From positions 32,001-96,000 of the IMG/VR virus record IMGVR_UViG_3300050142_000050: DNA of 64,000 nucleotides. The stretch is one strand, 5' to 3'. The position numbers and the translations under genes are program-made. The notes below the pieces were generated by a model. It saw only the letters and a program-made list of their open reading frames with translations. It was not told the DNA's origin and did not search any database. Positions 5,632 through 59,606 of this stretch are shown one piece after another (positions within the stretch are counted from its first letter, which is position 1; every line of letters begins with the position of its first letter). The DNA comes from a virus (Duplodnaviria; Caudoviricetes).

Positions 5632-5821
5632 GTTACCCTCTGACGGTTCGTGATGGAAGTCATACGATGTGCTATATTTACAGATATAATAAACGAGTAT
5701 TTTTACTAAGCAGTAGTAGGTGTATACTGTGATCAGTACCTGGACCGTTTAGGTCCTGGTTTACTGGAGGCTCTATGCGCTATATTCTGGAGAAGGCCAA
5801 ATCTCATGGAGATTGACCCTT

Positions 5822-12090: not shown

Positions 12091-12729
12091 ATGTCGGAAG
12101 AAAAAGAAAAACAACCCATCAGTCTGGAATTCTTCGACCTGTGTCGTACTGAGTTCATTCAGGATCTGGATGGACCCATCGTACTGTCAGCTTCGGAGTT
12201 CGCTCCTTATCAGGAGGCATTCTATCCTGACAAAGAGCGGTATGAGAATGATGGCGAGTATCGTAAGCATCTGTCTCAGGTGCGTGCGGCAGCTCAGTCG
12301 CAGTTGCGGTGGTCGCCCTATCGTTATTTCATCATCGTGAGTGATACCAATCGCGATGAAGTACTCCTGACGACTATCCCGATCTTCAATCGGATCAGTA
12401 GCGATCGGTCGGAACGACTCTCTCGGCGTCAACCTGGCGGTAGTCCTCTGGCTAATAAACTGGCGGATCTGGATGCAGTATCCAGCTTCGAGTCGCTCAT
12501 GGAGAGTAATCATACCCCAGAGATGGTGGAATACTTCCAGAAGGCCAATATGCGGACCAAGGTCTTGCATACCCTCTGGATGACAAAGACCGCTACTGAT
12601 GCACAGCTCGCAGAGCGTGGTTATAAGCGTGTCGATGGTGTGATCTATCCCCTCGAGGATGATCCTGAGGCCCCCAAGCCGGTAGGTACTATCGTACCCA
12701 CACTCGAGTTCGATGACGATGAGGACTGA
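12091..12729 (+). CDS. Hypothetical protein (212 aa) with acidic C-terminus
   Basis: AAGGAG RBS; overlaps the SbcD start. Confidence 0.65.
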   Translation: MSEEKEKQPISLEFFDLCRTEFIQDLDGPIVLSASEFAPYQEAFYPDKERYENDGEYRKHLSQVRAAAQSQLRWSPYRYFIIVSDTNRDEVLLTTIPIFNRISSDRSERLSRRQPGGSPLANKLADLDAVSSFESLMESNHTPEMVEYFQKANMRTKVLHTLWMTKTATDAQLAERGYKRVDGVIYPLEDDPEAPKPVGTIVPTLEFDDDED

Positions 12730-13870
12730 ACCTAAGTTCCTCATGATGTCCGATCTCCACTATGGCTCTAGGGATATTCCTCCGCATGAGATGGCGGATG
12801 CTTTCAGGAAGACTGTGTTCCCCATGGTCGGTGATGTTGACTTGATCTGCATCAATGGGGACTTCTACGATGATGCGATTGAATTTGACTCCGTCACATT
12901 CGATTGTGTCTATAATCTGATCGTGGATTTGATGCGCGAGTGCCAGCAACATGGGACTAAGTTGAGACTCATGCAAGGTACTTGGACGCATGATCGTGGT
13001 CAGGTCCAGAAGTTCGATCTTTTCTACAAGAGCCATCAGTTCGACTTTGACTTCCGTTTCGTCAGGAATATCGATTTTGAGGAGATCTCCTTTGGGGAGA
13101 AGACTCTTCGATTTATGTATGTCCCTGACGATATCGGTTACACCTCTTCTGAAGATGCCGTACAGGCTATCAAGGAAAAGATGAGTGATCGAGGGTGGGA
13201 CTATGTCGATTATGGTTGTATGCATGACTTCTTTGACTTCACATTCCCCAAGAATGTGAGCACTGAATACCGTCGTGTATATCGAGAGGAACAATTCCCA
13301 TTCGTCCATAAAGCGATCAATGTGGGTCATGTCCATCAATACCGAGTAGGTCCGATGAGTAAGGCCATCTCCAATGGTGGATTCGATCGCTATGTCCATG
13401 GTGACGAAGATGCTAAGGGGATGATCCTCTATGTCGATAAGGAAGATAGCTACACGGCCACTTTTGTGGAGAACAAGTTTGCAGCTGTCTTTGACACATT
13501 GGTGATCCCAGAGAGTCTCACGACTGAACAGATCACCAAGCTCATCACAGATCATCTCAATAGTCTCGCGACTGACCGCAGAGTCAATCTGAGGTTTGTG
13601 GTGGACACGATCAATAAGTGGTCAGTGATCCGTGAGTGGATGAGGGATAATTACCGAGACGTCAGATGTTCGATGAAGAGATCAAAGACTGTCACTCCGA
13701 TCAAGATGGTCAATGGTCCCCTCCTCACGACCAGCAGTAGTGCAGAACCTGAAGAGATTCCCACTCCTGCTAATCTGGCTACTTTGGTAAAAGCCATGCT
13801 CAATCCTGAAGATCCAATCACGATCGATGAGATCCAGAAACATTTGGATGGTCCTGTAGGAACGTCCTAG
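12713..13870 (+). CDS. sbcD: SbcD/Mre11-like metallophosphoesterase nuclease subunit
   Basis: Calcineurin-like motifs SDLH, NGDFYD, QGTWTHD, MHD, VGHVH; syntenic with phiKZ gp65. Confidence 0.85.
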   Translation: MTMRTEPKFLMMSDLHYGSRDIPPHEMADAFRKTVFPMVGDVDLICINGDFYDDAIEFDSVTFDCVYNLIVDLMRECQQHGTKLRLMQGTWTHDRGQVQKFDLFYKSHQFDFDFRFVRNIDFEEISFGEKTLRFMYVPDDIGYTSSEDAVQAIKEKMSDRGWDYVDYGCMHDFFDFTFPKNVSTEYRRVYREEQFPFVHKAINVGHVHQYRVGPMSKAISNGGFDRYVHGDEDAKGMILYVDKEDSYTATFVENKFAAVFDTLVIPESLTTEQITKLITDHLNSLATDRRVNLRFVVDTINKWSVIREWMRDNYRDVRCSMKRSKTVTPIKMVNGPLLTTSSSAEPEEIPTPANLATLVKAMLNPEDPITIDEIQKHLDGPVGTS

Positions 13871-53927: not shown

Positions 53928-53955
53928 AGGTAGGAGGGCGCGAGCCCTCCTACCT
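53928..53955. terminator. Bidirectional GNRA hairpin
   Basis: AGGTAGGAGGGC-GCGA-GCCCTCCTACCT. Confidence 0.72.
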
Positions 53956-54962: not shown

Positions 54963-55463
54963 TCAACTTACCGTCTCAGTATTGCTCTGAGACCCATCTT
55001 CGCTCTCTACGGGCTTCTGAGAGGAAATGAGAGTATTTTGAGCTCGTGTGATCTCCTGAACACTCAGAAGTTGATATTCGAGATCCTCAAGATCATCATC
55101 GTTCGCTACAAACCGAATGATCTCCTCGGGATGTTTCAAATACCGGAAGATGATTTCTCGTTTCTGGGAGGTGGTAGGATCAGTCACCGAGCCGCTAACC
55201 GGGATCCCTGATTTGGGAATCGGTAGGTGGGATAGGAACCTGACCAGCTCGCGGATCGTCGAGACCGTCCCTGGGTAGGAATCACCTCGACCACGGATAG
55301 TGATCTCAAAACCTCCACGAGGATCACCTGTGACGGATGGACCGATCTCCAGATCGTTGAACGGGACCTGACCGTCGCGGAGCCCGATCCGAGGGATGCG
55401 GGTGACGAGCAACCGAAGCTCGAAGCGGAGCGGTAGGTCGATCATCGTTCGCAAGTCGGGCAT
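54963..55463 (-). CDS. Hypothetical protein adjacent to the palindrome locus (166 aa)
   Basis: AAGGA RBS 7 nt upstream on the minus strand. Confidence 0.5.
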   Translation of the reverse strand: MPDLRTMIDLPLRFELRLLVTRIPRIGLRDGQVPFNDLEIGPSVTGDPRGGFEITIRGRGDSYPGTVSTIRELVRFLSHLPIPKSGIPVSGSVTDPTTSQKREIIFRYLKHPEEIIRFVANDDDLEDLEYQLLSVQEITRAQNTLISSQKPVESEDGSQSNTETVS

Positions 55464-55639
55464 GGTCAGATCCTTTCACAGGATCAGGGTCCAACCTGGT
55501 AGGAAATTTACAACCGATCTGTTTACAGATACTGGAAAAATCGGCGGGGGGTCGCGGGCGCGCGGGCGCGCTAAACCTTCAGAGCGCTTCGCGCTACGTT
55601 TCGCTTCCGCTAGGAAGCTTTCGTGAATGTTTTTTGTTT

Positions 55640-56110
55640 CTTCCAGTCTCCTGACTGGTTGAAATTCCATGAATTGAAAATTCAAACCATTTCTGGATTT
55701 CCAAGAAATCCAAATCCAAGTTTGGTATTTGATTTTCAGGATTTTTGAAAAATCCTGATTTTCACTTTGTATTCCGTGTGCGCGCACACGTGTCTAATAG
55801 ATTATACTTACGTAGTAAGTATTCTTTATTGAGATATATTAGTTATATATAACTAATATCTAGATATTACTTAAGTAATATCTAGTATTAAATATATACT
55901 AGTATATTAATACATATACAGAGTATATGTATATTAAAATATATATTTATATATATAAATAAATTAATAAACGCGTGGGCGGGCGCACGTGCGCAGGCGC
56001 GGGCACGCACACCCGGGCGCACACGCACGCGGTATTAATAAAACCCGCGCGCGAGCCCAGGGTTTTTATACCCGCACATCCGTGCAGGGTTTTATATAAC
56101 TCATCGTAAA
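55640..56110. repeat. Gene-free cluster of inverted repeats: AT-rich palindrome array flanked by GC-rich tracts
   Basis: Perfect or short-loop IRs at 55643-55658, 55695-55711, 55736-55758, 55775-55790, 55804-55822, 55836-55859, 55860-55885, 55894-55907, 55910-55932, 55945-55960 and 55983-55994. Confidence 0.85.
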
Positions 56111-56238
56111 AAAACTCCAAACTCGGAGTGTTATGTTTTGAGCACCCAGCGAACGAACCGATCTCGGAATAAAAACTTCCACTCGGGACTCCATCCCGTG
56201 AGTGAAAACCATTCACGATTTTTGGAGGATTCGGTGAA

Positions 56239-57180
56239 ATGATTACCCGATACCGAGACGCTGACTTGGCGTACCAGGATTTAATCCGGTACGTGGACCG
56301 GCATGGTGAGATTACCCACGACCGGACTGGGGTGGGGACCAAGGAAGTTTTCGCTACGGCGGTGGGATTCGATCTGGAACCGGATGAGGTCCCAGTCATC
56401 TCGCTCAAGCGGGTGTTTTGGAAAACCGCGATCAAGGAAATGTTGCTGTTCCTGCGAGGTGAGACTCGGTTGGAGGAGTTCCTGCGATGGGACGTCCACA
56501 TCTGGTCGGAATGGCCCTACCGCAAGTTCCTGGATGATCTGGACAAGACCCGCGGAGATGGGGTTCGGACTGAAATCACCCCTATCGGCCTCAAGCTGTT
56601 CGAGGATCAGATCCTGAGTGATCCTGAGTTCTCAAAGACCTGGGGGGACTTGGGTCCGATCTATGGGGGTACCTGGCGTAAGTGGCAGGGGAATGATGGG
56701 AAGATTTATGATCAGGTCGCTGACTTGGTCCATGCCCTCAAGCATAACCCCACGAGTCGTAGGAAGCTCTTCTCGGGATGGGATTACCCCAAGCTCGGTG
56801 AAATGGCTCTTCCGCCGTGTCACCTACTGTACCAGTATCACGTCCGCCAGGATGGCCGTCTCGAAAGCCTCCTATTTCAAAGATCCGCAGATTGCTTTTT
56901 GGGAGTTCCGTTTAATTGGACGGGACAGCGAGCACTCCAGATGATGCTGGCTAAGACCTGTGATCTGACTCCAGGAGATATGTTCTGGATTGGTGGGAGT
57001 ACTCACCTCTACACGAACCATTTGGAGCATATTCCGACGATCGAGAGTCGGTGGACTAGGAATAACCCTCGTCTCATCCTGAAGACCAAGCGGAATCGCC
57101 TCGAAGATTACGTGATCGAAGATTTCGAAATGGTGGGTTATGATCCCCACCCTGCTATCTCAGCGCAGGTCGCTGTCTGA
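56239..57180 (+). CDS. thyA: Thymidylate synthase (ThyA)
   Basis: DRTGVGT, GDLGPIYG, PTSRRK, MALPPCH, FQRSADCFLGVPFN, THLYTNH. Confidence 0.96.
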   Translation: MITRYRDADLAYQDLIRYVDRHGEITHDRTGVGTKEVFATAVGFDLEPDEVPVISLKRVFWKTAIKEMLLFLRGETRLEEFLRWDVHIWSEWPYRKFLDDLDKTRGDGVRTEITPIGLKLFEDQILSDPEFSKTWGDLGPIYGGTWRKWQGNDGKIYDQVADLVHALKHNPTSRRKLFSGWDYPKLGEMALPPCHLLYQYHVRQDGRLESLLFQRSADCFLGVPFNWTGQRALQMMLAKTCDLTPGDMFWIGGSTHLYTNHLEHIPTIESRWTRNNPRLILKTKRNRLEDYVIEDFEMVGYDPHPAISAQVAV

Positions 57181-58634: not shown

Positions 58635-58988
58635 ATGGCTAAGGTATCGAATATTTTGAGATCCACGACAGATGGATATGTCTTCTTCTGTCCTGGATGC
58701 AAGAACATGCACCAGGTGCGCGTTAAGGGCACTCCGGCGTGGGGATGGAATGGGAGTCTGGATAAGCCTACTTTCTCTCCTTCCATCCTCATTAGGTCAG
58801 GTCACCATGTACCTGGGCATGAGGGAAGTCAATGTTACTGTACTTGGGATGATAAGGAAGAGTTTCCTGATCTCAAGTGTGGGGTATGTCACTCATATGT
58901 GACGGATGGTAACATTCAGTTCCTCAGCGACTGTACGCATGAGCTTGCGGGGCAGACTGTTCCTATTCCCGATTTACCTGGCGAGTGA
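58635..58988 (+). CDS. DUF6527-like Cys/His zinc-binding protein (117 aa)
   Basis: FFCPGCKNMH, WGWNGSLDKPTFSPSI, CHSYVTDGNIQFLSDCTHELAGQTV. Confidence 0.7.
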   Translation: MAKVSNILRSTTDGYVFFCPGCKNMHQVRVKGTPAWGWNGSLDKPTFSPSILIRSGHHVPGHEGSQCYCTWDDKEEFPDLKCGVCHSYVTDGNIQFLSDCTHELAGQTVPIPDLPGE

Positions 58989-58991
58989 GGT

Positions 58992-59017
58992 GGTAGGAGG
59001 GCGTGAGCCCTCCTACC
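58992..59017 (+). terminator. GNRA hairpin
   Basis: GGTAGGAGGGC-GTGA-GCCCTCCTACC. Confidence 0.65.
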
Positions 59018-59111
59018 TACTCTATCTATCCAAAAGATTCGAAAGCTCATATCACCTTAATGGAGAATAGGTAGTGAGTAGACTATCATCCTCTATCTAA
59101 GGAGAAAGATT

Positions 59112-59543
59112 ATGGCACACATCGTCCACGATACCAATGCACTTTCCACCAATCCCAATTTCACAAGCACACATCTCTGTGTGGTAGAATCGAAAAATGA
59201 TGTCGACTTCCTCACAAACGGTGCGACTGTGTACGGCCCGTTCGGTTCGGAATCCGATGCCGAGGCGTTCATCGACGACTCGTCGTGCGGTCTTTACATT
59301 ACCGTCCCCATGACAACCACCTGTCCTGACAATACGTTCAAGTCAGTCGGCTTCTCGCGGAATAGTGGGGTATGTATCATCGCGGCACTGAACGGTAAGA
59401 ACTACCTCTCTGGTGGTTCGCACTTCGTCGGCCCGTTCACAACCAATGACGAAGCTCGGGCGTGGGCAAAAGAACATATCACTGATACTCCTTACGACAA
59501 CCCATATTGGGAAGTCATTCCGATGCAGGTCATCCTCGACTGA
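59112..59543 (+). CDS. Hypothetical protein with internal two-fold repeat (143 aa)
   Basis: LCVV...VYGPFGSESDAEAF and VCII...FVGPFTTNDEARAW; AAGGAG RBS; CATATCAC at 59048. Confidence 0.65.
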   Translation: MAHIVHDTNALSTNPNFTSTHLCVVESKNDVDFLTNGATVYGPFGSESDAEAFIDDSSCGLYITVPMTTTCPDNTFKSVGFSRNSGVCIIAALNGKNYLSGGSHFVGPFTTNDEARAWAKEHITDTPYDNPYWEVIPMQVILD

Positions 59544-59561: not shown

Positions 59562-59606
59562 GGTAGGGAGGCTCGCGCCTCCCTACCCCATATCCCTTTA
59601 TTTTTT
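59562..59606 (+). terminator. Hairpin plus spaced TTTATTTTTT
   Basis: GGTAGGGAGGC-TCGC-GCCTCCCTACC. Confidence 0.7.

Follow-up and report, generated by a model that had tools for sequence, protein, structure and literature searches.

A GC-clamped array of AT-rich palindromes in an uncultured jumbo phage shares its layout with an element of SPN3US-group phages and is a candidate replication origin

The origins of herpes simplex virus (HSV), oriS and oriL, hold an AT-centred palindrome between divergent genes, flanked by boxes that bind the origin-binding protein, and at initiation the palindrome is opened to a hairpin form. Theta origins such as ori-lambda, RK2 oriV and oriC contain an AT-rich meltable segment bounded by GC-rich DNA, transcript-primed origins (the T7 primary origin, T4 oriF and oriG, ColE1) a promoter-like core in or near an AT-rich unwinding region, and the ori/rep sequences of yeast mitochondria pairable GC clusters around AT stretches. 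No origin defined for phiKZ-related giant phages was found in the literature, a 2026 review of jumbo phages mentions none, and the start and finish of DNA copying in these phages are unmapped. Here we describe a concrete candidate in IMG/VR virus record IMGVR_UViG_3300050142_000050, obtained from leaf-litter metagenomes, of which bases 32001-96000 form the window considered here (64,000 nt). It is a one-of-a-kind 260-bp stretch, easily melted and hairpin-forming, clamped by two GC-rich boxes. Judged from its sequence, it belongs to a family of cis-acting DNA elements, present once per genome, whose other members are found in jumbo phages of the SPN3US group; we read it, at a probability of about 40%, as a protein-recognised DNA site that is opened by supercoiling and is most likely a replication origin. 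Coordinates refer to the window unless given as genome positions, and those of the individual features are collected in Table 1.

An earlier note, made from the letters of the window, had described 55801-55970 as about 86% AT with 23 G/C in 170 nt, nearly tiled by six inverted repeats, bounded by CGTGTGCGCGCACACG on the left and switching abruptly to about 84% GC on the right, with flanking genes that point away from it and nothing else like it in the window. This description proved accurate: the count is exact (13.5% GC), all six repeats are present where they had been placed, the left boundary sequence is CGTGTGCGCGCACACG, the 60 bp from 55972 are 83% GC, and the two neighbouring genes are divergent. 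Its singularity holds for the whole 249.5-kb genome, in which 13.5% is the lowest GC content of any 170-bp window (runner-up 32.4%) and the 60-bp window from 55972, directly beside this minimum, is the genome maximum. Of the 170 nt, 129 fall within palindromes whose arms are 7 nt or longer, against a mean of 21 and a maximum of 92 in dinucleotide-preserving shuffles, none of 5000 of which reached 129 (P < 2e-4); AT-richness alone is therefore no explanation for them. When folded as single-stranded DNA the region gives one hairpin per palindrome (z = -7.0 against shuffles), with the hairpin array enclosed by pairing between the left GC box and the right GC tract. The palindromes of the element are 0-23% GC, the only AT-rich perfect hairpins of the genome lie in it or just left of it, and the element occurs once in the genome.

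The left GC box, at 55775-55792, is the longest GC-rich alternating purine-pyrimidine run of the genome, and of the three that rank next the right GC tract contains two, so that three of the four longest Z-DNA-prone runs flank the core. The right tract opens with AAACGCGTG at the AT/GC boundary and contains two copies of CGGGCGCAC (55980 and 56014) as well as the palindrome GCGCACGTGCGC (55983-55994). The motif CGGGCGCRC has five copies in the genome, four of which, each on the plus strand, lie in the gap between the two divergent genes (0.02 expected): one pair stands 420 bp leftward of the core and the other in the right GC tract.

The sequence itself is well supported. The record comprises 249,638 bp and ends with a repeat of its first 140 bp, and other samples yielded contigs of this phage of equal length (249.6 kb) that start elsewhere; in assembly the genome is therefore circular and closed at 249,498 bp, whereas the record is labelled linear and 89% complete. 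The earlier note would have been refuted had raw reads failed to span the region; in assemblies the whole element is crossed, with zero differences, by two Joint Genome Institute (JGI) contigs, each from a different sample, and by a Logan contig present in seven samples. One JGI contig represents a strain variant with three single nucleotide polymorphisms in 6.5 kb around the element, the element itself being identical. Contigs of other runs, which had not been flagged as possible sources, reach the AT core from either side without mismatch and end inside it. The core thus breaks assemblies of lower depth, both flank junctions are independently confirmed, and we read these contig ends as assembler effects of coverage and palindromes, not as physical DNA ends. 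Word depth at genome positions 85-91 kb was 5-25% below that of a contig near 173 kb in three runs, a comparison that is invalid as a marker frequency and from which nothing is drawn.

The same layout, a GC box, an AT core with palindromes and a second GC box, is found in SPN3US, Asesino, Machina, Wellington and pEa_SNUABM_11. In SPN3US it occupies bases 70-235 and consists of a left box ACGCGTGCGCGTGCGCACAC, a core of A and T only, and a right box AAAACGCGTGCGGGCGCGCGCGTG; the core holds the 60-bp window of lowest GC in that genome (3%, next lowest 18%) and lies in a gene-free region of 1.7 kb. A blastn search with the SPN3US element retrieved 58 records from phages of Salmonella, Erwinia, Escherichia and Proteus, representing at least four genera. 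As in the present phage, the element of this group (Seoulvirus, Erskinevirus, Machinavirus and Wellingtonvirus) is single copy, lies in a gene-free gap and is the lowest-GC spot. No paper describing the SPN3US-group element was found in the literature searched, and an IMG/VR scan for the right-box pattern yielded SPN3US and one chance match in coding-like DNA only.

Both boxes of Asesino, Wellington, Machina and pEa_SNUABM_11 align with the present element. The left box common to the family is an alternating purine-pyrimidine GC sequence with the core GTGCGC(GC)ACAC, and Erwinia phage pEa_SNUABM_11 has in this box exactly the present 16-mer CGTGTGCGCGCACACG; none of 2000 dinucleotide shuffles of the left box shared a word that long with the family (P < 5e-4). 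A left-box profile was built from the five enterobacterial phages, with the present sequence left out, and its four best matches genome-wide all fell on the two boxes described here, the best at 55775..55792; the E-values are marginal, and the result partly reflects composition. The 9-mer AAACGCGTG stands at the same AT/GC boundary in the present phage, SPN3US and Asesino. Palindromes are in excess in the AT cores of SPN3US (P 0.006), Asesino (0.02), Wellington (0.03) and pEa_SNUABM_11 (0.03), not significantly so in Machina, and despite this enrichment the cores differ in sequence among family members. Assemblies tend to break inside the core in the SPN3US group as they do here. Those of EC001, JN03, SEGD1, SPFM2/16/17 and Proteus phage 7 start or end inside it, often at the same position near a palindrome centre, which is probably assembler behaviour.

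The present member is the most divergent of the family so far, from an uncultured soil or litter phage, yet its 16-bp box is identical, and it carries the most elaborate palindrome array. Its core measures 170 bp, compared with about 90-115 bp in the SPN3US group (family range 90-190 bp), is far more densely palindromic than the cores of that group, and is followed by a longer right GC tract (60 bp). The neighbouring genes are unrelated to those in the SPN3US group, of which Wellington is fully syntenic with SPN3US, and no shared protein adjoins the element except a non-syntenic thyA. The earlier note had suggested a search for a syntenic element upstream of thyA in relatives; none was found because the phage has no close relatives, and what was found is a non-syntenic element of the same layout with the same left-box 16-mer in the SPN3US group. 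Layout and 16-mer have been kept although the proteins are only 20-36% identical and synteny is absent. Such conservation across near-unrecognisable proteomes argues strongly for selection on the DNA itself, and very likely the element is an essential cis-acting site with a conserved protein partner.

We infer protein binding, core opening and initiation of replication from the conjunction of a meltable, hairpin-rich core, Z-DNA-prone palindromic boxes and locus-specific repeats in a divergent gap. Negative supercoiling, boosted by divergent transcription of the flanking genes, would open the AT core as a bubble or as cruciforms; the GC boxes would keep the opening from spreading and be recognised by a phage protein; and the opened core would be used for the start of DNA synthesis, as a replication origin or unwinding element. 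The primer would probably be a transcript of RNA polymerase, since chimalliviruses are reported to have no primase and it has been suggested that initiation takes place at RNA-DNA hybrids (bioRxiv 10.64898/2026.10.01.755736). If this function is confirmed, the element could become a handle for the engineering of these phages.

Comparison with the described origins is consistent with this reading by analogy. The arrangement resembles that of HSV in its AT-centred palindromes between divergent genes and its flanking boxes, but there is no sequence relationship and no UL9-like protein was identified here; moreover, each of the two or three HSV origins contains a single palindrome, whereas the present element is single copy with six to seven short palindromes. 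Its likeness to theta origins lies in the AT-rich meltable segment bounded by GC-rich DNA and in short repeats confined to the locus (four CGGGCGCRC, five AAATCC), which are putative initiator sites. A promoter-like core in an AT-rich unwinding region recalls the transcript-primed origins, although no bona fide promoter of the present phage reads into the core, and the GC boxes that may pair around an AT stretch recall yeast mitochondrial ori/rep.

Table 1. Features of the palindrome element, its surroundings and the nearby skew switch (window coordinates)
Feature	Position	Strand	Basis or remark
166-aa orphan gene, left divergent gene	54963..55463	-	good codon score
Non-coding interval of 775 bp separating the divergent 166-aa gene from thyA	55464..56238	.	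open reading frame list, codon scores
Distal GC block that contains the 9-mer CGGGCGCGC twice (55555, 55563)	55543..55573	+	
Two short GC hairpins, AGCGC-TTCG-GCGCT and GCTTCC-GCTA-GGAAGC	55584..55616	.	read from sequence
Five AAATCC/GGATTT hexamers in both orientations	55690..55760	.	5 copies in 61 bp vs 0.29 expected
23-bp palindrome TCAGGATTTTTGAAAAATCCTGA	55736-55758		within the AAATCC/GGATTT region
Left GC box: 16-bp perfect palindrome CGTGTGCGCGCACACG in an 18-bp alternating purine-pyrimidine run	55775..55792	.	
AT core	55801..55970	.	13.5% GC, palindrome-tiled
Palindrome 1	55804-55822		
Palindrome 2, perfect, 24 bp	55836-55859		
Seventh palindrome TAATATCTAGATATTA, bridging both perfect ones	55854-55869		
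Palindrome 3, perfect, 26 bp	55860-55885		
Palindrome 4	55894-55907		
Palindrome 5	55910-55932		
Palindrome 6	55944-55961		
Right GC tract, 83% GC	55971..56031	+	
Hairpin with following T-run, present as two direct repeats (ACCCGC...CAGGGTTTT)	56040..56100	+	direct-repeat family D5, read from sequence
Hairpin and T-run directly 5' of the thyA ribosome-binding site, attenuator-like	56197..56217	+	terminator-like scan
thyA (thymidylate synthase), right divergent gene	56239..57180	+	PF00303 E 9.4e-84
Sharp skew switch, cumulative maximum at 59007 (genome 91,007)	58700..59400	.	terminator and early-promoter junction

The genome also shows a strong strand asymmetry. Cumulative GC skew is V-shaped, with a range 10 standard deviations (SD) above block shuffles and 9 SD above them after correction for gene orientation. 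Within each arc its sign is the same for plus- and minus-strand genes (all positions), third codon positions show the same pattern with a shift of 0.08-0.10, and the AT skew has the opposite sign. This orientation-independent skew is the signature expected of replication rather than transcription. Chimallin-encoding phages have been reported without such skew patterns (PMC12625630), and the V shape is unusual given that. The present genome thus offers a readable skew, unlike the enterobacterial members: in SPN3US asymmetry follows gene orientation and gives no clean replication signal.

In a two-change-point fit the sharp switch falls at 91.0 kb (interval 90.7-91.4 kb from the profile), while the other switch, the cumulative minimum, is broad (222-240 kb). 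The element, at genome positions 87.8-88.0 kb, lies 3 kb from the sharp switch, or 1.2% of the genome, and the chance of a random site lying this close to either switch is about 5%. In between stand thyA and four small genes, possibly an acquired cassette. According to the classical rule (Lobry, Grigoriev), G and T are in excess on the leading strand and a cumulative GC-skew maximum marks the convergence of forks. Since the nearby switch is a cumulative maximum, forks would by this rule converge there and diverge around 222-240 kb; the argument from polarity is not watertight, because gene co-orientation (block counts) mildly favours the opposite assignment of origin and terminus. The GC-skew signal that the earlier note had proposed to look for was therefore obtained in part, as a strong replication-type V with a sharp switch nearby, but the switch is of the fork-convergence type and the label of origin has to be tempered accordingly.

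Several results weigh against an origin at this place. The skew switch beside it has terminus-type polarity, the interval of that switch excludes the element, and the origin-type minimum lies far from it. No DnaA box was found in the 775-bp gap even with two mismatches, and no recognisable initiator gene adjoins the element; in these respects, as in the nearby skew, it differs from theta origins. On the comparative side, the right tract shares words with the family no more than shuffles do (P = 0.6), and neither the right-box profile nor the right-flank profile of the family matched the present element. The GATC cluster and the conserved right flank GATCCTTATTAC..AGATC of the enterobacterial members are not found here: the gap has four GATC sites where about eight are expected, none of them at the boxes, and no homologue of the SPN3US methyltransferase occurs among the proteins common to both phages. 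Finally, a search for the GC-box pattern in phiKZ, RP12, LucasX, PCH45 and RSL2 gave chance matches in coding regions without an AT core, and the element is therefore not universal in the group.

The skew lends itself to another explanation, namely that the element is a replication terminus or a site of fork fusion or resolution, at which forks from about 222-240 kb meet near 88-91 kb and are paused by the element, or at which a topoisomerase or a structure-specific nuclease, for instance the SbcD-like enzyme, unlinks or cuts the DNA replicated last. The sharp switch 3 kb away is of terminus type, its skew is independent of orientation with an AT skew of opposite sign, the phage encodes an SbcD-like palindrome nuclease, and no other unusual non-coding element stands at either switch; at the skew minimum the AT-poor spots are coding or ordinary. 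Even so we consider this explanation unlikely, as the fitted interval leaves the element 3 kb outside, no tyrosine recombinase, serine recombinase or protelomerase (PF00589, PF00239, PF16684) was matched in the genome, and SPN3US has no clean replication-type skew for comparison. SbcCD usually attacks palindromes longer than the 24-26 bp found here. To our knowledge no sequence-defined terminus is known in any phage, which also counts against it. In its strict form, in which the forks of a bidirectionally replicated jumbo-phage chromosome converge at the GC-clamped AT core as a defined end site, the proposal appears distinctly unlikely; if true, it would be a terminus or fork-fusion element defined by sequence, unprecedented for a phage, and would imply theta-mode replication that starts across the genome from it, at an origin yet to be seen.

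Alternatively, the element could control transcription, as a bidirectional promoter, upstream element or insulator, as a set of hairpins that terminate or attenuate transcription of thyA and the 166-aa gene, or as a source of small RNAs. It lies between divergent genes, terminator-like hairpins with T-runs are enriched in the gap on both strands (6 versus 1.0 expected), one of them directly 5' of the thyA ribosome-binding site, and the early-promoter core ATATTAC can be read on either strand of the 26-bp palindrome. To weigh the latter, an early-promoter model was built from the consensus tCATATTACCannRTGAa. It identified 21 convincing early promoters, which score 18-41 bits and are all on the plus strand, whereas the best site in the 26-bp palindrome reaches 10.9 bits (rank 24) and was rejected. 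The hairpins are also unlike the terminator family of this genome: some 80 other perfect hairpins are all GC-rich (53-77%) and intergenic and follow the form AGGTAGGAGGGC-N4-GCCCTCCTACCT with a T-run, against stems of 0-23% GC in the element, whose palindromes were therefore not assigned to this family. No Rfam family (Rfam 15 covariance models) matched at the gathering score or at E <= 1. Since family members adjoin unrelated genes, and in SPN3US co-directional ones, gene-specific regulation is no explanation for the conservation, and control of transcription appears to us an unlikely function. The proposal of a structural cis-element made in the earlier note is supported, as coding, terminator, early-promoter and Rfam explanations fail; the origin reading leads but is unproven.

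Early-type promoters are found in the window at 5807, 15681, 18772, 39109, 59033, 59620 and other positions, as well as genome-wide; the top-scoring one (genome 223,977) is near the skew minimum and two others flank the skew maximum. Terminator-like hairpins of the GC-rich family stand for instance at 53928-53955, 58992-59017 and 59562-59587, and their near-identical copies break short-read contigs.

A further possibility is a pac site for packaging, or a mark of some other kind on the chromosome for terminase or for handling such as anchoring or segregation; in its favour, the element is single copy and conserved and its boxes resemble protein-binding sites. The SPN3US element lies about 4 kb from the large terminase gene and several isolate assemblies start or end inside the core. 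In the present phage, however, the terminase gene is 94 kb away, which weakens the packaging site put forward in the earlier note. The assembly is circular (140-bp overlap) with contigs of the same phage from other samples starting elsewhere, and breaks at palindrome centres in low-coverage AT DNA are what assembler behaviour predicts. The nuclear-shell anchoring also suggested there found no support: no chimallin homologue was detected with phiKZ gp54 (genome search, phmmer, blastp), and tblastn gave no hit to the SPN3US region, although a homologue of so fast-evolving a protein may have been missed. We regard a role in packaging or chromosome marking as highly unlikely.

That the element has no function, being an assembly artefact, a foreign AT-rich remnant or a selfish palindromic repeat, is barely credible, and artefact or junk is largely excluded: although its composition is wholly unlike the rest of the genome and the adjacent thyA looks bacterial in origin, independent assemblies and a strain variant carry it unchanged, it is single copy, and perfect 24- and 26-bp palindromes together with a 16-mer common to distant phages would not survive without selection. 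In exact searches its palindromes were absent from viral and metagenome contigs, and a mobile repeat resembling a miniature inverted-repeat transposable element was discarded on this ground and on that of the single copy. Two matches in 596 Gb of genomes (a Ferroplasma metagenome-assembled genome and Bacillus mobilis) are isolated chance palindromes without the flanks.

As to the genes around the element, thyA has its closest relatives, at about 50% identity, mostly in alphaproteobacteria (Sphingomonas, Rhodobacteraceae), whereas the thyA of SPN3US is only 29% identical; these nearest relatives suggest that the gene was acquired from bacteria and may hint at the host clade. The 166-aa protein has no Pfam or PHROG match and no homologue outside the phage among 5.8 billion proteins, and its Atlas structure model is of low confidence, too poor to use. 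An open reading frame of 103 aa at 55476-55787 on the minus strand was rejected as a gene, as its codon score is -0.24 (real small genes 0.18+-0.17, off-frames -0.48), it lacks a Shine-Dalgarno sequence and its GTG start lies inside the left palindrome. The gap is therefore gene-free over the whole of its 775 bp.

No close relatives were found in IMG/VR by means of thyA, the 166-aa protein or an RNA polymerase subunit, and a DNA search of the phage collection with the locus gave no match. A split RNA polymerase, the SbcD-like nuclease, a DNA polymerase and the large terminase link the phage to the phiKZ/SPN3US radiation at 20-36% identity, and 30 of its 234 proteins match SPN3US in the same range. 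The earlier note had called the phage phiKZ-like, which holds loosely, by these homologues; phiKZ itself has no such element by the pattern test. The SbcD-like 'palindrome-specific' nuclease is encoded at 12713-13870 and is 31% identical to phiKZ gp65, and it is found together with the only AT-rich perfect palindromes of the genome. The open reading frame of the large terminase (genome 181,862-184,477, 871 aa) consists of two blocks that match SPN3US TerL with about 150 extra residues between them, which may be an inserted domain or an intein-like insertion.

Other parts of the gap also have structure. The palindrome TCAGGATTTTTGAAAAATCCTGA and the T-run that accompanies it give a terminator-like score on the plus strand. 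The hairpin at 56197-56217, which comes after the two hairpin/T-run units at 56040-56100, is a possible attenuator or leader structure of thyA. At 55584-55597 the plus strand has a hairpin with a tetraloop of the C(UUCG)G type, and the minus strand of the same site reads as the d(GCGAAGC) mini-hairpin motif.

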